9,804 nucleotides of DNA, taken from a virus (Duplodnaviria; Heunggongvirae; Uroviricota; Caudoviricetes). Location: the IMG/VR virus record IMGVR_UViG_2579778652_000001, positions 1 through 9,804 of that record. One strand, given 5' to 3'. A program made the position numbers and the translations under genes. Each line of letters opens with the position of its first letter. Position 1 is the first letter of the stretch. This document shows positions 1-9,804 of this stretch, piece by piece. Under the pieces are notes generated by a model that was given only the letters and a program-made list of their open reading frames with translations, had not been told where the DNA came from and made no database searches.

Positions 1-861
1 AGCCCCAATACTCCAATCACCAAATGGTCTGATGTTGCGCAGACGGCATCTTTCCTGAAAGACCTCGGCGTTAATGAAGGTGAAAACTATGCTGTAATGG
101 ATCCATGGTCTGCACAGCGACTTGCTGATGCGCAGACTGGTTTGCACGCTTCAGATCAATTGGTTCGTACTGCATGGGAGAATGCACAGATCCCAACCAA
201 TTTTGGCGGCATTCGCGCACTGATGTCTAATGGGCTTGCCTCTCGTACGCAGGGGGCATTTGGCGGAACACTGACAGTCAAAACACAGCCAACTGTTACC
301 TATAACGCAGTTAAAGACTCATACCAGTTCACTGTAACATTGACCGGAGCGACAGCCAGCGTTACAGGTTTTCTGAAAGCTGGTGATCAGGTTAAATTCA
401 CCAATACCTACTGGCTGCAACAGCAGACCAAACAGGCGTTGTATAACGGAGCCACACCAATTAGCTTCACTGCAACGGTTACTGCTGATGCTAATTCAGA
501 CAGCAGTGGCGATGTGACGGTTACGCTTTCTGGTGTTCCGATTTATGACACTACAAACCCGCAGTACAACTCTGTAAGTCGTCAGGTAGCGGCAGGCGAT
601 GCCGTATCTGTAGTAGGCACTGCTAGCCAGACAATGAAGCCAAACCTGTTCTATAACAAGTTCTTCTGTGGACTTGGCTCTATCCCACTGCCGAAACTGC
701 ACAGTATTGATTCTGCTGTTGCAACATATGAAGGTTTCTCCATCCGCGTACATAAATACGCAGATGGCGATGCCAACGTGCAAAAAATGCGCTTTGACTT
801 ACTGCCTGCATATGTGTGCTTTAACCCTCACATGGGCGGTCAGTTCTTCGGTAATCCGTAA
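1..861 (+). CDS. Major capsid (coat) protein, C-terminal ~287 codons; 5' end lies upstream of the window
   Basis: The reading frame of the 97..861 ORF stays open back to nt 1 (32 sense codons, no stop), so M97 is internal. Stop TAA at 859-861. The stretch QFTVTLTGATASVTGFLKAGDQVKF resembles the inserted I-domain region of the P22 coat protein as I recall it ([26 protein letters not shown]). It sits immediately upstream of a gp4-like gene and is followed by a strong hairpin terminator, as expected for a highly expressed coat gene. Confidence 0.85.
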   Translation, partial: SPNTPITKWSDVAQTASFLKDLGVNEGENYAVMDPWSAQRLADAQTGLHASDQLVRTAWENAQIPTNFGGIRALMSNGLASRTQGAFGGTLTVKTQPTVTYNAVKDSYQFTVTLTGATASVTGFLKAGDQVKFTNTYWLQQQTKQALYNGATPISFTATVTADANSDSSGDVTVTLSGVPIYDTTNPQYNSVSRQVAAGDAVSVVGTASQTMKPNLFYNKFFCGLGSIPLPKLHSIDSAVATYEGFSIRVHKYADGDANVQKMRFDLLPAYVCFNPHMGGQFFGNP

Positions 862-865
862 TAAC

Positions 866-892
866 AAGGGGCTTACGCCCCTTTTATGTTTT
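866..892 (+). terminator. Rho-independent terminator/attenuator just downstream of the coat gene
   Basis: Perfect 7-bp stem AAGGGGC (866-872) / GCCCCTT (877-883) with 4-nt loop TTAC, followed by a T-rich tract TTTATGTTTT, beginning 5 nt after the coat stop codon. Confidence 0.6.
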
Positions 893-903
893 AAGGAAAC
901 AAT

Positions 904-1089
904 ATGGATCGCATGAGTGTATTCCTTGCCGCAGATAACGAATCCGGGCATGTACAGGCCGTTATCGCAGAAAAAGACTTCCAGTTTTTCGAAAAGTTGG
1001 GCTTTGTTGCCTCAGTTGATGAATTGAAACCGACCAGTAAGCGAGGTCGTAAGGCGGCAGACAATGGCAACAGTACTGACAAAGGGTGA
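904..1089 (+). CDS. Small hypothetical protein (61 aa), acidic N-terminus and basic C-terminal tail
   Basis: ATG at 904 is preceded by AAGGA with about 6 nt spacing, directly after the terminator. A small ORF between coat and the gp4 homolog is common in P22-like genomes. Its 3' end overlaps the gp4-like start by 26 nt in another frame. No recognisable motif. Confidence 0.45.
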   Translation: MDRMSVFLAADNESGHVQAVIAEKDFQFFEKLGFVASVDELKPTSKRGRKAADNGNSTDKG

Positions 1090-1546
1090 GATCGTCCTTT
1101 TTGCGCTTCGTAAGTTTGCTATTGCTTCTAATGCATCGCTGACTGATGTTGAGCCGCAATCAATTGAAGATGGTGTAAATGATCTGGAAGATATGATGTC
1201 CGAGTGGATGATTAACCCCGGCGACATTGGTTACGCTTTCGCAACTGGAGATGAGCAGCCATTACCAGATGATGAGTCAGGTCTTCCAAGAAAATACAAA
1301 CACGCAGTAGGCTATCAGTTATTGCTGAGAATGCTATCTGATTACAGCCTTGAGCCAACTCCGCAAGTTCTCAGTAACGCCCAACGCTCATATGATGCCT
1401 TGATGACCGACACTCTGGTTGTTCCTTCAATGCGACGACGTGGAGATTTTCCTGTAGGGCAGGGTAATAAATATGACGTGTTCACATCTGACCGATATTA
1501 TCCAGGCGATATCCCTCTGATTGATGGCGATATCCCAAACGCATAG
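1064..1546 (+). CDS. 4: Head completion / portal-binding tail adaptor protein (P22 gp4-like), 160 aa
   Basis: N-terminal motifs TKGEIVLFALRKF...ASLTDVEPQS...DLEDMMSEW match my recollection of P22 gp4 (TKGDLVRAALRK...TLTDVEPQS...DLEAMMAEW). Size is close to P22 gp4 (~166 aa) and the position between coat and the gp10 homolog is syntenic. Confidence 0.85.
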   Translation: MATVLTKGEIVLFALRKFAIASNASLTDVEPQSIEDGVNDLEDMMSEWMINPGDIGYAFATGDEQPLPDDESGLPRKYKHAVGYQLLLRMLSDYSLEPTPQVLSNAQRSYDALMTDTLVVPSMRRRGDFPVGQGNKYDVFTSDRYYPGDIPLIDGDIPNA

Positions 1547-1554
1547 GTGAATAA

Positions 1555-2973
1555 ATGCCTATTCAGCAACTTCCGCTTATGAAAGGTGTCGGCAAAGACT
1601 TTAGAAACGCCGACTATATCGACTATCTGCCAGTGAATATGTTGGCTACACCCAAAGAAATCCTGAACAGCAGCGGATATCTTCGCTCATTCCCGGGCAT
1701 TGCCAAACGTTCTGATGTGAACGGCGTATCGCGCGGAGTTGAGTACAACATGGCGCAGAATGCTGTTTATCGCGTGTGTGGCGGCAAGCTGTACAAAGGA
1801 GAAAGTGAAGTCGGTGATGTTGCCGGAAGTGGTCGCGTATCAATGGCGCATGGTCGGACATCGCAGGCGGTAGGCGTTAATGGTCAACTTTTCGAGTATC
1901 GCTATGATGGCACGGTTAAAACCGTCTCAAACTGGCCTACAGACAGCGGATTCACACAGTACGAGTTAGGTTCAGTTCGCGACATTACGCGCTTACGTGG
2001 TCGTTATGCGTGGTCAAAAGAAGGCACTGATTCATGGTTTATCACTGACCTTGAAGACGAATCGCATCCTGACCGTTACAGCGCACAATATCGCGCAGAA
2101 TCGCAGCCGGACGGCATCATCGGTATCGGCACATGGCGAGACTTCATCGTCTGCTTTGGTTCATCGACGATTGAATATTTCTCCCTGACGGGGGCAACCA
2201 CCGTTGGTGCTGCTTTGTATGTCGCACAGCCATCGCTGATGGTGCAAAAAGGCATCGCCGGGACTTACTGCAAAACGCCATTCGCTGATTCTTATGCGTT
2301 CATCAGCAATCCGGCAACAGGTGCTCCGTCTGTATACATCATCGGATCCGGCCAGGTGTCACCAATCGCCAGCGCGAGCATTGAGAAAATCCTCCGCTCC
2401 TACACTGCTGATGAACTGGCTGATGGTGTGATGGAATCGTTGCGGTTCGATGCGCATGAACTGCTGATTATCCATCTTCCGCGCCATGTCCTGGTATACG
2501 ACGCATCTTCAAGCGCTAATGGTCCGCAATGGTGTGTGCTGAAAACAGGCCTGTATGACGATGTGTACCGCGCTATCGACTTCATTTACGAAGGCAATCA
2601 GATAACGTGCGGCGATAAGCTGGAATCGGTTACTGGCAAATTGCAGTTCGATATCAGCAGCCAGTATGGGCTTCAACAGGAACACCTGCTGTTTACTCCA
2701 CTGTTCAAAGCGGATAACGCCAGATGCTTCGATCTGGAGGTGGAATCATCCACTGGCGTAGCTCAGTACGCCGACCGCCTGTTCCTCTCTGCAACCACTG
2801 ACGGCATAAATTACGGACGTGAGCAGATGATTGAACAGAATGAACCGTTCGTTTACGACAAACGTGTTTTGTGGAAGCGAGTCGGGCGCATCAGGAAAAA
2901 TGTCGGCTTCAAATTGCGCGTTATCACGAAGTCACCTGTCACTCTGTCTGGCGCTCAGATAAGGATTGAGTAA
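1555..2973 (+). CDS. 10: Tail hub / head completion protein (P22 gp10-like), 472 aa
   Basis: Length is exactly that of P22 gp10 (472 aa) and the position follows the gp4-like gene. RBS AGGTGA lies 5 nt upstream of the ATG. The stop overlaps the next start in a TAATG junction. Confidence 0.88.
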
Positions 2974-3821
2974 TGGCGGATTCGAATCTCAATGTGCCGG
3001 TAATCATTCAGGCTACACGGCTCGACACATCAGTCCTTCCACGCAATATCTTCTCGCAGTCGTATCTGCTGTACGTTATCGCACAGGGTACTGATGTTGG
3101 TAACGTGGCGAACAAGGCCAACGAGGCCGGACAGGGCGCTTATGACGCACAAGTCAGGAACGATGAGCAGGATGTGATTCTCGCTGACCATGAGCAGCGA
3201 ATTTCTGCTGCGGAAGCAACGCTTGTTAATCATGAGGAGCGAATCAGCCAGGCAGAATCAACTCTTCAGGAACATGAAACACGAATAGCGCAGAATGAAA
3301 GCGATATTGCGTCGCTTGATACCAGAGTTCAGTCGCTGGAGTCGCAGGTTTCAGACCATGAAACGCGCATTGATGCTCTGGAGTATGCAACAACGCGCAA
3401 GAAGTCAGAGGTTGTTTACTCTGGCGTATCAGTAACCATTCCGACAGCGCCGACCAACCTTGTTAGCCTGCTGAAAACGCTCACGCCGTCATCAGGCTCG
3501 TTGGCACCATTCTTCGACACCGTTAACAACAAGATGGTTGTGTTCAACGAGAACAAAACCCTGCTCTTCAAGTTGTCGATTGTCGGCACGTGGCCCAGCG
3601 GAACCTCCAACAGGTCAATGCAGCTAACCTTTTCCGGCTCTGTTCCTGACACACTGGTCAGCAGTCGTAATGCGGCGACAACAACCGACAACATCCTGTT
3701 AGCTACGTTCTTCAGCGTGGATAAAGACGGCTTTCTTGCCACAAATGGCAGTACGTTAACTATTCAGTCAAATGGTGCGGCGTTTACTGCCACAACCATC
3801 AAGATAATCGCGGAGCAGTAA
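2973..3821 (+). CDS. 26: Tail needle / cell-envelope-penetrating plug (P22 gp26-like N-terminus and coiled coil, with an extended non-P22 C-terminal domain), 282 aa
   Basis: N-terminus [67 protein letters not shown] matches the recalled P22 gp26 N-terminus ([43 protein letters not shown]...). It is followed by 14-residue periodic repeats [14 protein letters not shown] / [14 protein letters not shown] / HETRIAQNE...HETRIDALE typical of the trimeric coiled-coil shaft. The C-terminal ~130 aa (from about [12 protein letters not shown]) is not P22-like. TAATG overlaps at both ends. Confidence 0.85.
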
Positions 3822-4276
3822 TGATTCAGTTCAAACCAACGCGAAACATCGACCTGATCGAAGCAGTCGGAAATCACCCTGACATTATTGCCGGGAGCAA
3901 CAACGGTGATGGATACGACTACAAACCTGATTGCCGTTACTTTGAGGTGAACGTGCACGGGCAGTTCGGCGGCATTGTTTACTATCAGGAGATTCAGCCG
4001 CTTACATTCGATTGCCACGCCATGTACCTGCCAGAGGTTCGTGGATTCAGCAAGGAAATCGGGCTGGCGTTCTGGCGATACATTCTGACTAACACCACCG
4101 TTCAGTGCATCACATCGTTCGCTGCACGCAAATTCCGCCACGGGCAGATGTACTGCGCAATGATTGGCCTTAAGCGTGTAGGAACCATCAAGAAATACTT
4201 CAAAGGCGTGGATGACGTGACGTTTTACAGCGCCACACGCGAAGAACTAATCGACTTCCTGAATCACGGGAGATAG
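3821..4276 (+). CDS. 14: Head assembly protein (P22 gp14-like), 151 aa
   Basis: Position between needle and first ejection protein matches P22 gene order. Start is coupled to the needle stop (TAATG). Size is comparable to P22 gp14 (~170 aa). Confidence 0.75.
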   Translation: MIQFKPTRNIDLIEAVGNHPDIIAGSNNGDGYDYKPDCRYFEVNVHGQFGGIVYYQEIQPLTFDCHAMYLPEVRGFSKEIGLAFWRYILTNTTVQCITSFAARKFRHGQMYCAMIGLKRVGTIKKYFKGVDDVTFYSATREELIDFLNHGR

Positions 4277-4278
4277 CC

Positions 4279-4971
4279 ATGTTATATGCATTTAAGCTGG
4301 GCAGAAAACTGCGCGGCGAGGAACCTTATTGCCCTGAAAAAGGCGGGAAAGGTGGCAGCTCTGATAAAAGCGCAAAGTATGCAGCAGAAGCTCAGAAGTA
4401 TGCCGCAGACCTGCAAAATCAGCAGTGGCAGACGATCATGAAAAACCTTGCTCCGTTCACGCCGCTTGCGGAGCAGTATGTTAACCAGCTTCAGAATCTT
4501 TCCAGTTTAGAAGGTCAGGGGCAGGCACTTAATCAGTATTACAACTCTCAGCAGTATAAAGACCTTGCAGGTCAGGCGCGTTACCAGAGTCTTGCTGCTG
4601 CGGAGGCGACTGGTGGACTTGGTTCGACAGCTACAAGCAATCAACTGGCTACGATCGCGCCGACACTCGGTCAGTCTTGGTTATCAAATCAGATGAGCAA
4701 TTACAACAATCTGGCAAACGTTGGGCTTGGTGCGCTGCAAGGTCAGGCAAACGCTGGGCAGACATACGCCAACAACATGAGCAGCATTGCACAGCAAAGC
4801 GCAGCACTTGCCGCTGCTAATGCCAATAAACCATCAAGTCTTCAAACTGCAATTAGCGGTGGCACGTCTGGTGCGATTGCCGGTGCAGGTCTTGCCAGCC
4901 TTTTGGGAACATCAACGCCTTGGGGCGCTGGCATTGGTGCTGGTATCGGATTGCTTGGCTCGTTGTTTTAA
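4279..4971 (+). CDS. 7: Ejection (E) protein, P22 gp7-like, 230 aa
   Basis: Size is almost identical to P22 gp7 (229 aa). N-terminus MLYAFKLGRKLRGEE and the Gly/Ala-rich hydrophobic C-terminus (GAIAGAGLASLLGTSTPWGAGIGAGIGLLGSLF) match my recollection of gp7. GGGAG RBS lies 6 nt upstream. Confidence 0.85.
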   Translation: MLYAFKLGRKLRGEEPYCPEKGGKGGSSDKSAKYAAEAQKYAADLQNQQWQTIMKNLAPFTPLAEQYVNQLQNLSSLEGQGQALNQYYNSQQYKDLAGQARYQSLAAAEATGGLGSTATSNQLATIAPTLGQSWLSNQMSNYNNLANVGLGALQGQANAGQTYANNMSSIAQQSAALAAANANKPSSLQTAISGGTSGAIAGAGLASLLGTSTPWGAGIGAGIGLLGSLF

Positions 4972-4981
4972 GGGGGTAATC

Positions 4982-6313
4982 ATGGCTACTTGGCAAGGAA
5001 CAAACGGCGGATTGTTGGCTGGTATCGGCGGCGTCAACTCAAACGCTCCGAGCGTAAATGACATCGGAAATACGCTTCAGCTTATCAGGCGGAACAATGA
5101 TATTGAGCGTTCAGGCGCTAACAATGTTGGGCTGACTGCTTTGCAAGGCCTTTCAGGTATTGCGGGGGTGTTTCAGCAGGAAAAGCAGGCTCAGCGGCAG
5201 AAAGAATTTCAGCAGGCATACGCTAATGCTTATGCGTCTGGTGATCGCGGTGCTTTGCGTCAGTTGGCTACTCAATATCCAGACCAGATTGAATCCGTTC
5301 GTAAAGGCATGGGATTCATTGATGAAGACCAGCGTAATTCTATCGGCACCTTAGCGGCCGGCGCACGCCTTGCGTCATCGTCTCCAGAAGCAATGCAATC
5401 ATGGCTGCAAAACAACGCCGGTGAGTTAGCTCGTGTTGGCGTTAATCCTCATGACGTCGCTCAGATGTACCAACAGAACCCGCGGCAGTTCGGCGAATTT
5501 GTCGATCACCTGGGGATGAACAGTCTCGGGCCCGAAAAATACTTTGACCTACAGGATAAAATGCAGGGTCGACAGGTTACCATGCGCGGTCAGGATCTGG
5601 ATTCGCAAACCGCCGCTCGGAATCAGGCAATCACAATGCGCGGACAAGATATCCAGGCGAATTTAGGTCAGCAGCGCATTAATCTGGACGCAGAAACAAA
5701 CCGCATTAACAACGAAAATAAGCGCCTTGACCGGATGCTATCAGCAGAAACTAACGACCTGAAGCGCCAGGAAATACAGAGCCGCATAGCAGCCAACAAC
5801 CAGCAGTTGCAGCAGAAGCAGCAAGCGCTAAATGATGGCTACAAAGACGGCATCAACACCCTCACAACCAGCATGTTCACTCTGAACGATATCGTTAGTT
5901 CTCCTTCACTTAAGAGCATTACAGGCTTACGTGGAGTAATCCCCAACGTTCCAGGCTCACAGGCTGCAGACACTCAGGCACGACTTGATACCTTTAAATC
6001 CCAAGCATACCTGACAGCGGTTCAGGCCATGCGAGGCATGGGCGCACTTTCTGATGCCGAGGGCAAAAAGCTCGACCAGGCTGTTGGTTCGCTGCAGAAC
6101 TCGCAGAGCGAGGAGTCCTTTCGTCGCAACGCTGGCGTCATCCTGAACACGCTCAACCAGAAGCGTAATGAGGCGGTTGGTAAGTACGTTCAGCAAAACG
6201 GTATCAAGCGAGTGGAAGCGCCTCAGGCTTCTATAGATTACCTGAAGCAGCACCCCGAGCTGTCAATCGACTTCATTAATCGCTACGGATATCTTCCATC
6301 TTTGGGGCAGTAA
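4982..6313 (+). CDS. 20: Ejection (E) protein, P22 gp20-like, 443 aa
   Basis: Start chosen at ATG 4982 (MATWQGTNGG...), preceded by AAGGGGG with 5 nt spacing and lying 10 nt after the gp7-like stop. The longer ORF-track start at 4787 would overlap the gp7-like gene by 185 nt and has no RBS. Size is close to P22 gp20 (471 aa). Central region is Q/N/R-rich with predicted coiled-coil character. Confidence 0.8.
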   Translation: MATWQGTNGGLLAGIGGVNSNAPSVNDIGNTLQLIRRNNDIERSGANNVGLTALQGLSGIAGVFQQEKQAQRQKEFQQAYANAYASGDRGALRQLATQYPDQIESVRKGMGFIDEDQRNSIGTLAAGARLASSSPEAMQSWLQNNAGELARVGVNPHDVAQMYQQNPRQFGEFVDHLGMNSLGPEKYFDLQDKMQGRQVTMRGQDLDSQTAARNQAITMRGQDIQANLGQQRINLDAETNRINNENKRLDRMLSAETNDLKRQEIQSRIAANNQQLQQKQQALNDGYKDGINTLTTSMFTLNDIVSSPSLKSITGLRGVIPNVPGSQAADTQARLDTFKSQAYLTAVQAMRGMGALSDAEGKKLDQAVGSLQNSQSEESFRRNAGVILNTLNQKRNEAVGKYVQQNGIKRVEAPQASIDYLKQHPELSIDFINRYGYLPSLGQ

Positions 6314-9049
6314 ATGGCTAATTACCGTGATTTGTTAGAGCAGGCTGGCGCACGTTACGGTGTGCCAGAAGGGTTGATGACTGCACTGAGTGCCAAGGAG
6401 TCTTCTCACAACCCTGCCGCAGTAAGCTCCGCCGGGGCTGTAGGATTGACTCAGGTCATGCCTGGGACATGGCGTGATATGGGTTATACCGATGAGCAAA
6501 TGCAAAACCCCGAATATCAGGCTGACGCTGGCGCGCGCTATCTGGCAAAGATGTACCAGCAGTTTGGTAACTGGCGTGATGCTCTTCAGGCTTATCACGA
6601 CGGTCCCGGCAACGTTATGAAGGCAAAGCGTGGTGAATATACGCCAGGACCTGAAGGCCGCGGTTACGTTGATGATCGCTTTGCTCAATGGGCGGGTGAC
6701 CCGGTGACAGACTCAACAGTCGAACAGCGCGCCACCTCTGCAAAGGTACATCCTCAGCAAGACCCTAACAACCCGTTTGCACAACTGGAAGCACAGTCAT
6801 CCGAACAAGTATCGGCATCAGGTGTGCAGTCAGACCCAAATAATCCATTTGCTCAGATTGAGCAGCAGGCAGCCAGTCAGCAGCCACCTCAACCCGTAAG
6901 TTCTGTCGCACCGAAACCTGTTCAGCAACAAACAGTTAATCAGGCCAATAATGAACCAGCACGTGAAGAACCATCATTGATGCAACAAGCTGGCGATTGG
7001 CTCACAGGTGGTCAAAGTGCAGGGCAAATTGCAGAGCAGGCTGGTCGTGGTCTGGTAAACATACCATTTGACGTATTGCAGGGTGGCGCAAGTCTGATTA
7101 ATGCAATCAGCCAGGGGCTTGGTGGCCCCAAGGTTTTGGACGATGTCTATCGTCCAGTAGATCGACCGACAGACCCTTATGCGCAAGCTGGAGAGTCAAT
7201 AGGCGGTTATCTTGTTCCTGGAGCAGGAGTAGCTGGAAACATGGTCATTGGTTCTCTCGCTGACGCGGCGAATCAACGGGGTGATTTTGCCGAAAATGCC
7301 GCTATTAATGCCGGACTTAACATTGCTACGCATGGCCTGATAAATGGCGTTACCCGTGGTGTTCGTGGTGCATCAAATATAATTAGTGGCAATAAAACAT
7401 CTGCACAGAGAGCGACCACTGCGGCAACAGAAACATCACCATTCTCCGGTGATGCCGCTGCAGCAACAAATCCTGCTGTTCATGCCGCAGAGGCAAGAGT
7501 AGCACAAGGTGTACCAATGACGCCTGCAACGAGGAACCCAGAGGAAGTCGTTCGCACAGTAGCAGCACAAAAAAGGCCAAATCTCGCTTCATCGCTTGAT
7601 GAACTAGATATCAATCCTCAGGCTGAAGTTCTGGAGTCTGCTGAAAGGCTTAATGTTGATTCATTACTCCCTTCACACTTTTCCGGGAACGAGCAATACA
7701 AGGCAGTTGAGCAAGCAATCAAGTCCCGTGCGGGTTCTGCTCTACAGGTGCAGGAAAATGAAGCAATCAGGCAGCTAGCACAGGGCGCGGGGGAGATAAT
7801 TGATCGCGTTTCCGGTGCAAAAGATGCTCTTGGTATGAGCGACAAGTTTATTGATACGGTCAATGGAAGAATGTCTGCGCTGATGAAACGAAGCGACCAG
7901 CTTTATCGCAATGTTGAAAAGGCGATGCCTGCAGGTGCAAAAATTGATGCGCCATCAACAAGGTCAATGCTCAAACAGGTGGCAGAAGATCTTGGCGGGA
8001 TGAAAAACCTTGACCCTATTGAAAAGAGAGTCTTTCGGGCAGTTAATCCAGGCAAGAACGGCGCATTAACTTATGCAAATCTCAATAAGCAACGACGACT
8101 TGTTGGTGATGCACTTCATAAGAATTCTGGACCATATAAAGATGCTGATCGCGCTGCTTTATCGAGGCTTTACGGTTCGCTCGCCGATGATCAAAAGGCG
8201 GCGCTGTCAGAGACAAATGCATTACGTGATTTTGAAGTTGCTCAGAGGCTTGTTCAGATGCGAAAAAGCATGGAAGAGCAAATGATTAATCTAACTGGCA
8301 GAACGCTGAACGGTGATGTTTCTCGCAAAGCAACTACAGCACTACAGGCAATGTCGAAAGGCGATGCCAAAGGATTTCGTGAATTGATGCAAAACACGCC
8401 GTCCAGGAAGCTAAGAACCGAGCTACTGGGAACAGGTCTTCGGGATATGCTTTCGAACGGAAAACGTGGCGCTGATTTTAATCCTGCAGGGTTTGCTGAT
8501 TGGTATCAAAACATGTTAGCAAACGGGCAGATGCGCAATCTTGCCCGACATTTACCAAAAGAGACTATGTCAGGTCTGAACGATGTATATAAGGTCGCAA
8601 AGGCTATCAAAGACGCAAAATCTTACGAGATAACTACAGGAAGACTAAACGAGTTCGTCAAACGGTTTAATCGCGTCACTGCGGCAAATGAATTTGTTGC
8701 TAACCATGCCCAACGCATTGGCACTGCGGTTGGTTCAACTGTGTCAGGACCGTTCAGTGCAGTAGGTGCTGTTGCTGGGTCAGAAATTGGGGCAAAAGTC
8801 GCCAGCAAAATCAGGGCGATGGGCGGCGCTGAATCAATTGAATCTGCAGAAAAGCTAATTAGCTCACCAGAATTCCAGAAAGCAGCAAGGCTGGCAGTAA
8901 AACAAGCACCAGAAAGCATCGTTGATACAACTGTAAGACGCTCTTCTGCTTGGCGCTCGTTTTACAACTCACTTCCAGAATCAGATAAGAAAACCATATC
9001 AAGGCTAGGCATCATGTACTGGATGAACAGTGATGATAACCAGAAGTAA
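6314..9049 (+). CDS. Third ejection protein (gp16 position) with N-terminal lytic transglycosylase (SLT) domain, 911 aa
   Basis: ATG abuts the gp20-like stop (TAAATG). The first ~130 aa carry the family-1 SLT signature: catalytic Glu in AKESSHNP (E29, nt 6398-6400), [10 protein letters not shown], and AYHDGPGNV. This is followed by a Q/P-rich linker with a duplicated DPNNPFAQ(L/I)E(A/Q)Q peptide and then ~680 aa of mixed Gly/Ala-rich and helical sequence. It occupies the slot of P22 gp16 (609 aa) between the gp20 homolog and the immunity/tailspike region. Confidence 0.8.
6761..6868 (+). repeat. Duplicated 12-codon peptide motif DPNNPFAQ(L/I)E(A/Q)Q inside the SLT-to-body linker, copies 72 nt apart
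   Basis: Copy 1 at 6761-6796 (gac cct aac aac ccg ttt gca caa ctg gaa gca cag) and copy 2 at 6833-6868 (gac cca aat aat cca ttt gct cag att gag cag cag). The peptide is conserved while many third codon positions differ. Confidence 0.6.
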
Positions 9050-9066
9050 CGGAAAGCCACGGATGG

Positions 9067-9360
9067 TTAGCTGCTGTCTTTTTTATATAGCTCTTTGAGC
9101 GTATCAAAGACAATTTTCTTAACCATATCGGATTGTTGTTCTGCCATACGCTCTGCATCGTCAATGTAAACTGATGCAGAGCTTTGTTTAGCCAATGATT
9201 CTTCAATCGCTGCAATTATCTCTGAGTTCAGCGACCTGTTATTCATCTTCGCACGCTGTTTAATTTTCGCGTGGAGTTCATGCGGAAGTCTCAAGTGAAA
9301 CTGCGCCTCGTCGTATTTGCTGTACATCCTTGATGCCTCACCAGTTGGGTGGAATGGCAT
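9067..9360 (-). CDS. mnt: Mnt-like ribbon-helix-helix transcriptional repressor (Arc/MetJ superfamily), 97 aa from the first ATG, or 86 aa from the internal ATG at 9327
   Basis: C-terminal half DDAERMAEQQSDMVKKIVFDTLKELYKKDSS is nearly identical in pattern to P22 Mnt (NDAERLADEQSELVKKMVFDTLKDLYKK). The RHH core FHLRLPHELHAKIKQRAKMNNRSLNSEIIAAIEESL aligns with Mnt FNFRMPMEVREKLKFRAEANGRSMNSELLQIVQDAL. Both candidate starts have a plausible SD (AGG before 9360; GAGG before 9327). Confidence 0.85.
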   Translation of the reverse strand: MPFHPTGEASRMYSKYDEAQFHLRLPHELHAKIKQRAKMNNRSLNSEIIAAIEESLAKQSSASVYIDDAERMAEQQSDMVKKIVFDTLKELYKKDSS

Positions 9361-9448
9361 CGTAACCTACTGGATAAATACTCAATAGTACCATTTCGGT
9401 ATGCAATCACATCATGGTTGCATCATATCATTCGTCTGGAGTAATGAA
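9361..9448. promoter_or_regulatory. Divergent intergenic control region between the mnt-like gene and the tailspike gene; candidate operator and promoters
   Basis: Inverted repeat ATGCAA (9401-9406) N11 TTGCAT (9418-9423), so a TTGCAT -35-like hexamer reads outward on each strand. Direct repeats CATCAT at 9410-9415 and 9421-9426. Candidate -10 TATCAT at 9426-9431 on + and GAGTAT (complement of 9378-9383) on -. GGAG SD at 9438-9441, 7 nt before the tailspike ATG. Confidence 0.35.
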
Positions 9449-9804
9449 ATGTCAGATATCACCGCAAACTTAGTGGTAGGGATGCCTGCGCAGCTTTTCA
9501 CGCTGGCACGCTCATTTAAAGCAAATGCCAACGGTAAAATCTATCTTGGGCTACCAGATACCGATCCTACAATCCCAGCGAATCAAATCCCTGTTTATAT
9601 TGAAAGTGAAACTGGAGATCTGATTCCAACTGCTCAGCCGATAGTCATTAACGCGGGTGGGTATCCTGTTTACAACGGGCAGATATCAAAGTTCGTTACT
9701 GTGCAGAATTACAGCATGGCTGTTTACGACGCCTATGGATCGCAGCAGTTCTACTTCCCTGACATTGCAAAATACGACCCAGATCAGTTAAGGCAACAGC
9801 TTGA
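9449..9804 (+). CDS. 9: Tailspike protein, N-terminal head-binding domain (first 118 codons; continues beyond the window)
   Basis: [113 protein letters not shown] aligns along its length with the P22 gp9 N-terminal domain as I recall it ([56 protein letters not shown]...KYDPDQ). No stop before the window end. Not in the ORF track because it is open-ended. Confidence 0.9.

Follow-up and report, generated by a model that had tools for sequence, protein, structure and literature searches.

A lytic transglycosylase domain at the N-terminus of a gp16-slot ejection protein in a P22-like phage genome: a recurrent minority architecture

The gene and its SLT domain

The window analysed here is the whole stretch of 9,804 nucleotides (nt) at positions 1 to 9,804 of the IMG/VR virus record IMGVR_UViG_2579778652_000001 (Caudoviricetes), and the gene of interest is an open reading frame (ORF) of 911 amino acids (aa) on its plus strand (6314..9049), with an ATG start and no internal stop. 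The ORF lies in the slot of gene 16, the third ejection-protein gene of phage P22, and its product combines a lytic transglycosylase domain of the SLT type at the N-terminus with a long gp16-like remainder. As judged from its slot, its conserved N-region and its match to PHROG 770, the protein belongs to the gp16 ejection-protein family, with a body of a divergent type. The gene and its parts are as follows (pLDDT, predicted local distance difference test):

6314..9049, +: whole gene, SLT-gp16 fusion, third ejection protein of the Sf101 ORF13 type (stop codon 9047-9049)
6314..6688, +: SLT catalytic domain, aa 1-125 (family-1 lytic transglycosylase, GH23-like; Pfam PF01464; E29 at nt 6398-6400)
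6689..6973, +: Q/P-rich flexible linker, aa 126-220 (composition; pLDDT <50)
6974..7387, +: conserved gp16 N-region, aa 221-358, Gly-rich and weakly hydrophobic (81% identity to P22 gp16)
7388..7603, +: Ala-rich low-confidence spacer, aa 359-430 (24% Ala; pLDDT 28-47)
7604..9046, +: all-alpha C-terminal body, aa 431-911, of the Sf101/LS45 sequence type (AlphaFold2)

The original prediction, made by a model from the letters alone, was that the protein opens with a complete family-1 SLT signature in which E29 is catalytic, and this is borne out. The Pfam SLT profile (PF01464; gathering cut-off 21.3 bits) matches aa 7-110 with 87.6 bits and E=5.7e-25 over profile positions 2-110 of 117, a sequence match far beyond chance, and all three motifs that had been quoted are found: K28-E29-S30-S-H-N-P, G44-L-T-Q-V-M-P-G-T-W and A93-Y-H-D-G-P-G-N-V. 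In a phmmer alignment to 1QSA (chain 1qsa_A), E29-S30 falls on the catalytic E478-S479 of Escherichia coli Slt70, and in a BLASTP alignment E29 falls on E37 of T7 gp16. E29, S30, G44, L45, Q47, Y94, G97, G99 and N100 are invariant in 27 gp16-slot homologues, as are 38 SLT positions in all, at SLT-domain identities down to 43%, and the invariance of motifs I-III argues for purifying selection on catalysis. D120, R122 and F123, directly after the domain, are likewise invariant among homologues.

Structure prediction agrees with the expected fold: the AlphaFold2 model has pLDDT ~90 over aa 1-110, and Foldseek matches it with probability 1.0 to the solved structures of MltE, MltF, MltC and Slt70, so that a lysozyme-like alpha-helical SLT fold is predicted. 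A sequence search of the PDB with the 911-aa protein returned SLT enzymes only; among NCBIfam models there is no curated family for this protein or for P22 gp16, and only SLT models match, all below their cut-offs. On every criterion that could be applied to the sequence and the model, the N-terminus classifies as a bona fide family-1 SLT domain.

The assignment to the gp16 slot rests on the genes upstream. By Pfam, these follow the P22 order, namely coat protein (its gene cut by the window edge), gp4, gp10, needle gp26, gp14, gp7 and gp20, and because they are homologues of the P22 proteins the 911-aa ORF takes the place of gp16: it is the last of three ejection genes, after gp7 and gp20 and before the immI/tailspike region. 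The TAA of the gp20 homologue and the ATG of the ORF abut without a gap (cagTAAATGgct). The gp20 homologue itself starts at ATG 4982, preceded by a GGGGG Shine-Dalgarno-like run (aagggggtaatcATG); a mechanically called start at TTG 4787, which would overlap gp7, was rejected, as Sf101 and E. coli F1005 annotate a 1332-nt gene of 443 aa. The neighbouring features are:

1064..1546, +: gp4 homologue (Pfam P22_Tail-4, E=5e-74)
2973..3821: tail needle, gp26 homologue of 282 aa with an Sf6-type knob (PF16532, E=4e-115)
4279..4971, +: gp7 homologue, first ejection protein (Pfam P22_gp7, E=1.8e-134)
4982..6313, +: gp20 homologue, second ejection protein, 443 aa, 1332 nt (Pfam Inj_translocase, E=1.4e-67)
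9067..9360, -: Arc/Mnt-type (Mnt-like) repressor, directly downstream of the gp16-slot gene
9449..9804, +: start of the tailspike (head-binding domain), downstream of the Mnt-like repressor

Over positions 1-5518 the window shares 96% identity with Sf6, and at its ejection-protein end it matches Sf101; in these alignments the change from Sf6-like to Sf101-like sequence appears as a clear mosaic junction inside the virion module. The needle has an Sf6-type knob here and is a knobless protein of 212 aa in Sf101. SieA has been reported to target gp16 and gp20. In contrast to P22, sieA is absent between gene 16 and mnt in the window. In the identical prophage of E. coli F1005 (NZ_OY754353.1, retrieved stretch 17000-19696), the tailspike is followed by an O-antigen modification cassette (gtrA, gtrB and a glucosyltransferase gene) and then by host dacD and sbmC, whereas Sf101 has an O-acyltransferase in the place of this cassette.

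A mosaic of modules and its kinship with P22 gp16

By sequence comparison, at least three modules make up the mosaic of the 911-aa protein: the SLT domain with its linker, the conserved N-region, and the body. The first of these (aa 1 to ~205) has 99.2% nt identity to the start of gene 16 in phages IME10 and phiKp_30 (over the first 618 nt for IME10), and Dewey and Huey are ~98% identical to the gene at the nt level through nt 899. The junction lies at about nt 6918-6965, as identity to IME10 stops at gene nt 618 and identity to the LS45/HK620 type starts at nt 605-652. The allele in the E. coli LS45 prophage, 743 aa long and without SLT, has a short N-terminus of P22 type, but shares 99% identity over everything from residue 199 on; the cassette therefore replaces ~30 residues, with the exchange point inside the Q/P linker. 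Some distant homologues (P0043, P0054) retain this short N-terminal motif ahead of the SLT. Within the gene, G+C content falls from 54-55% over the cassette (6300-6900) to 45-48% over the body (7650-9000), which fits modules of different origin, and the SLT cassette is found on at least three gp16 body types, those of Sf101, IME10 and Dewey/Huey.

The linker that had been described as Q/P-rich is confirmed as such, with 18% Q and 14% P over aa 126-220, and its AlphaFold2 pLDDT below 50 predicts disorder. A short motif, DPNNPFAQ[LI]ExQ, occurs in it twice (aa 150-161, nt 6761-6796; aa 174-185, nt 6833-6868), each copy being modelled as a short helix, and distant SLT-bearing homologues keep one related motif, E-L-x-Q-L-x-QQ. 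The duplication of DPNNPFAQ is visible in the protein only; at the DNA level, a search for repeats in the linker gave nothing beyond a 16-nt pair at chance level. In a variant of 922 aa, the 11 additional residues lie outside the linker. It is speculation, by analogy with residues 157-228 of T7 gp16, that the helix motif might act as a gp20-binding 'tape'.

That the remainder of the protein is homologous to gp16 had been proposed from gene position, and this stands in part. By BLASTP, aa 221-353 are 81% identical to aa 53-189 of P22 gp16 (E=9e-68), and PHROG 770 ('DNA transfer protein'), of which P22 gp16 is a full-length member, matches aa 108-864 with E=8e-162; beyond aa 353, BLASTP gives no match to P22 gp16. 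The N-region contains two hydrophobic segments (246-266 and 294-319), is 92-94% identical at the nt level to HK620 and CUS-3, and occurs in 610 of the 5426 complete E. coli genomes; PF26808.1 is recorded, as a precomputed match, on both protein sets that bear it, the P22 gp16 type included.

The body is predicted to be all-alpha with pLDDT ~90 over aa 430-775, followed by a low-confidence, Gly-rich, weakly hydrophobic stretch (aa 802-827) and terminal helices. At high identity, this body (aa ~360-911) is limited to Sf101, APC_JM3.2 and a set of E. coli prophages. At E<=1e-3 its family comprises 1041 clusters (50% identity), with the body C-terminal in the matches listed; an SLT is present in 32 of the 150 best cluster representatives and in each of these falls within the N-terminal ~170 residues. 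A search for other catalytic domains in the 56 longest SLT-less representatives gave no Pfam match at all. Among the BFVD neighbours of the models of the 911-aa protein and of P22 gp16 are uncultured-phage proteins described with LT_GEWL, Peptidase M15B and SleB, which hints at gp16-like bodies with muralytic heads of different kinds.

Comparison of this body with that of the P22 type by hhalign gave probabilities of 0.2-1.8% (P up to 0.25) with shallow profiles, and a probability of 19% (P=0.0012), collinear over 312 columns, with a profile of 146 sequences. The two ends are joined by intermediates: the body is related to the Dewey type (hhalign probability 99.1), the Dewey type weakly to the IME10 type (BLAST 3e-4 in a database of 12 sequences), and the IME10 type strongly to the P22 type (BLAST 1e-70). 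Furthermore, 23 of the top 50 BFVD structural neighbours are common to the two models, though P22 gp16 has no SLT. The PDB holds no solved relative of the body detectable by sequence, and Foldseek returned nothing convincing for it. The part beyond aa ~358 is thus a different mosaic type, tied to P22 gp16 only through intermediates and shared neighbours of predicted structure, which is consistent with the mosaicism and the 22-26% identity reported among gp16 proteins (PMC10883804).

Prevalence, relatives and annotation

The gene is already known at the level of sequence and annotation, and the novelty implied by the original prediction is not upheld. ORF13 of Sf101 (AII27837.1, KJ832078), annotated in 2014 as 'transglycosylase', has 99.7% nt identity over 2736 nt and the same place after the gp7 and gp20 homologues; the gene of Escherichia phage APC_JM3.2 has 99.3% over 2736 nt in the same position, and between these two genes and that of the window there is essentially no difference. 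The gene in the E. coli F1005 chromosome (NZ_OY754353.1) is 100% identical, and the exact 911-aa protein has several NCBI accessions, named either 'lytic transglycosylase domain-containing protein' or 'soluble lytic murein transglycosylase'. PHROG 21143 (576 positions) matches aa 1-573 with 1337 bits.

The SLT cassette is present in 70 of the 5426 complete E. coli genomes, a lower bound given that megablast misses divergent cassettes, which is ~11% of the 610 with a gp16-family gene; it is also found in IME10, Dewey, Huey, phiKp_30 and APC_JM3.2. The SLT-gp16 architecture is therefore annotated and recurrent among P22-like phages, as the original prediction had allowed, but as a minority form, ~11% of E. 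coli gp16 genes, rather than as the norm.

The IME10-type gp16 (797 aa, NC_019501) carries the SLT and linker cassette in the same slot on a body of P22 type, which is 35% identical to aa 143-598 of P22 gp16 (E=1e-76) and unrelated to the window body at the BLAST level; the cassette therefore does sit on unquestionable gp16 homologues. A single 90%-identity cluster of IME10-type gp16 contains 1295 member sequences. In other genera, IME_EC2 (Murrayvirus), Lumpael, Sortsne, Skarpretter, C130_2 and IME279 give a full-length collinear match over SLT and body at 31-34% identity and 69-99% query coverage; the IME_EC2 gene follows gp7- and gp20-like genes in a P22-like virion module, and in all six phages the gene is annotated as 'transglycosylase'. 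The IME_EC2/Lumpael/RSK1 group differs from the window protein in its larger size (1007-1280 aa), its linker and its N-region. In Ralstonia phage RSK1 (1280 aa), the tblastn match covers the body only (aa 435-885, 32% identity), and the SLT is barely above the Pfam cut-off. SLT-body proteins of 836-960 aa occur in records source-named Serratia, Klebsiella, Cronobacter, Pluralibacter and Shimwellia.

In the literature searched, we found no paper that discusses an SLT on a P22-like gp16, although an earlier remark may exist. In the Sf101 paper, ORF11-13 appear only as a variable 'DNA injection module', with no word on the SLT, and according to a review from 2022 P22-like phages lack the transglycosylase. 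The mobility of muralytic domains among the internal virion proteins of podoviruses has been described in general terms (PMC4819975).

Several annotation problems surround these genes. The RefSeq Prokaryotic Genome Annotation Pipeline (PGAP) flags the intact 911-aa ORF of F1005 as 'incomplete; missing C-terminus' and gives its first 573 codons only (NZ_OY754353.1, retrieved stretch 12001-13719), and in strain XH992 it calls a partial pseudogene fragment (NZ_CP019392.1, retrieved stretch 2491-3615). There are many NCBI 'partial' proteins of 564-576 aa which, together with the 576 positions of PHROG 21143, seem to reflect the same truncated gene model. The IME10 records have no coding sequence for gene 16, though the 797-aa ORF with SLT and P22-type body directly follows gene 20 (NC_019501, retrieved stretch 3501-5894). 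Conversely, the label 'transglycosylase' has spread to gp16 proteins without SLT: the protein QVW53994.1 (707 aa) of phage E212 bears it and has no Pfam match (retrieved stretch 1811-3934), and PHROG 29864, labelled 'transglycosylase', matches the SLT-less P22 gp16 over aa 1-331 with E=3.6e-176. RefSeq wrongly names the ejection protein Sf101 ORF13 'lytic tail fiber protein', and the Arc/Mnt-type repressor homologue of Sf101 is mislabelled 'putative chromosome segregation ATPase'.

Proposed role and comparison with T7 and P22

We consider it probable, by analogy with T7 and P22, that the protein is the gp16-slot ejection (pilot) protein of a P22-like (Lederbergvirus, Sf101-type) prophage of E. 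coli or Shigella, in which a mobile cassette of ~200 aa, comprising the SLT and its tether, has replaced the short N-terminus and cuts the cell wall at DNA entry. Its direct basis is the identification of the domain, the conserved catalytic motifs, the place of the gene, the mosaic structure and the prevalence; packaging, ejection, periplasmic location, enzymatic activity and conditional benefit are what we infer. Under this proposal, the short N-terminal segment of an ordinary gp16 (~30 aa) would have been swapped for the SLT domain and the Q/P-rich tether. Packaged in the head, as T7 gp16 is, the protein would follow gp7 and gp20 out through the tail at infection. Through its alpha-helical body and its hydrophobic, Gly-rich segments it could then join the inner membrane and the conduit, which is what has been reported for P22 gp16, while the SLT domain, refolding in the periplasm on a tether of ~100 residues, would cleave MurNAc-GlcNAc bonds locally and widen the hole in the peptidoglycan for the gp20/gp16 DNA conduit. 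Given that the same body also circulates in SLT-less alleles and that the phage has a gp4 homologue, this activity is, as in T7, probably not essential but beneficial under certain conditions, such as highly cross-linked walls. The phage would then carry two candidate wall-cutting proteins, the gp4 homologue and SLT-gp16.

Several points weigh against this proposal. The literature gives no virion proteomics, zymogram or mutant for the 911-aa protein or its close relatives. SLT-less alleles with the same body exist and are the commoner ones, and the SLT must therefore be dispensable in at least some hosts; phages of the P22 type do without it altogether, gp4 being the muralytic protein reported for P22 (PMC5380687). 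The membrane-proximal regions of the AlphaFold2 model are of low confidence, so the periplasmic topology of the N-terminus has to be taken as inferred, and neither BLASTP nor hhalign establishes homology between this body and that of P22 gp16.

Some of the same observations could be accommodated if the SLT were a degenerate or structural remnant on a plain gp16, with gp4 or host enzymes cutting the wall. The wide distribution of SLT-less alleles of the same body, the lack of an SLT in P22 gp16 and its closest 120 relatives, and the documented activity of P22 gp4 as a virion lysin (PMC5380687) would all suit such a remnant. However, a decaying domain would hardly keep its E-S, GLxQ and AYxxGxGN motifs among 38 positions invariant at domain identities as low as 43%, nor a hidden Markov model score four times the Pfam cut-off, and the recurrence of N-terminal SLT placement across the body family also speaks against decay; we regard this explanation as improbable. 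We give still less credence to the idea that the SLT acts late, in auxiliary lysis or virion release, or in head assembly, rather than at DNA entry. Nothing specific favours it, beyond the facts that SLT domains also occur in phage endolysins and that PHROG 669 ('endolysin') matches the protein with E=2.6e-22, whereas the gene lies in the late virion/ejection cluster and outside the lysis cassette, the SLT forms one polypeptide with a member of a protein family whose packaging and ejection are known, and the closest functional precedent, T7 gp16, works at entry (PMC8954989).

The fused ORF might also be an artefact, with an SLT gene and a gp16 gene joined by an error of sequencing or assembly, or else a pseudogene, as the PGAP calls in F1005 and XH992 would imply. 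The flag in F1005, however, spans only those 573 codons and fits a truncated reference model such as PHROG 21143, and the window ORF is free of internal stops. The same uninterrupted ORF recurs, at 98-100% identity, in two phages that were sequenced independently and in no fewer than 12 complete E. coli chromosomes, besides the full-length SLT-body proteins under other enterobacterial source names listed above. This explanation is already contradicted by the available sequences, and we assign it almost no weight.

Returning to the proposed role at DNA entry, we put forward a more specific version of it tentatively, as a possibility that we rate below even chances. The SLT cassette and the linker helix (NPFAQ[LI]ExQ) may be the P22-like counterpart of the 'wings plus molecular tape' of T7 gp16-N, with the N-terminus in the periplasm, at peptidoglycan height beside the gp20 tube; the cassette might be a horizontally exchanged accessory that recombines in the Q/P linker onto at least three body types and is kept in about one in ten E. 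coli P22-like prophages for entry into dense, highly cross-linked walls.

The overall value of these observations is modest and lies in a correction to the literature, an implication for topology, and natural allele pairs. As an SLT is present in roughly one of every nine gp16-family genes of complete E. coli genomes, the absence stated in the 2022 review needs to be amended in the specialist literature. A periplasmic enzyme at the N-terminus would argue that the gp16 N-terminus stays periplasmic within the DNA conduit. The window gene and the LS45 allele form a near-isogenic pair with and without SLT, 99% identical from residue 199, and thus a natural comparison for the need of a wall-cutting activity of its own beyond gp4. 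Finally, the annotation problems are exposed, with intact genes recorded as pseudogenes, gene 16 missing from IME10, and mislabelled proteins.

With regard to known systems, P22 gp16 has 609 aa, as the original prediction had given, and no Pfam domain in our local library, and it is not known to be muralytic; the virion-associated activity of P22, which had been said to reside elsewhere, is credited to gp4 (Latka et al. 2017, PMC5380687, Table 2). P22 gp16 resembles the window protein in its slot and in the N-region, and its model has the same layout, with a disordered Gly-rich N-region, an all-alpha domain, a low-confidence hydrophobic segment and terminal helices. It differs in having a beta-hairpin/helix N-terminus of 30 aa instead of the SLT, and in a body that BLAST cannot align with that of the window protein and that hhalign aligns at P=0.0012 to 0.028. 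P22 gp16 has been described as the membrane-bound part of the conduit (PMC10883804).

The likeness to T7 gp16 (internal virion protein D, 1318 aa), which had also been predicted, holds at the level of architecture: in both phages an N-terminal SLT is carried by the largest and last-encoded ejection protein, in T7 as a transglycosylase that is needed when the peptidoglycan is highly cross-linked (PMC8954989). Over aa 2-119 the two proteins share 28% identity (E=6e-10), E29 falling on E37, and PHROG 342 matches the N-terminal part only (E=4.9e-24); BLAST similarity ends at aa 119, and a PDB sequence search at E<=0.01 returned no T7 gp16 chain. The top structural match in the PDB is nevertheless a T7 core protein chain (7eyb_I, 1101 residues), a weak match with a Foldseek E-value of 2e-3, a probability of 0.77 and a template modelling score of 0.10-0.12. 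Since the remaining ~1100 residues of T7 gp16, with the tape, membrane and cytoplasmic-hub regions, have no detectable counterpart by homology, the window protein is classed, on its sequence, as an analogue of T7 gp16 rather than as a member of its family. T7 internal virion protein D and P22 gp16 have been regarded as alternative, interchangeable solutions (PMC4819975).

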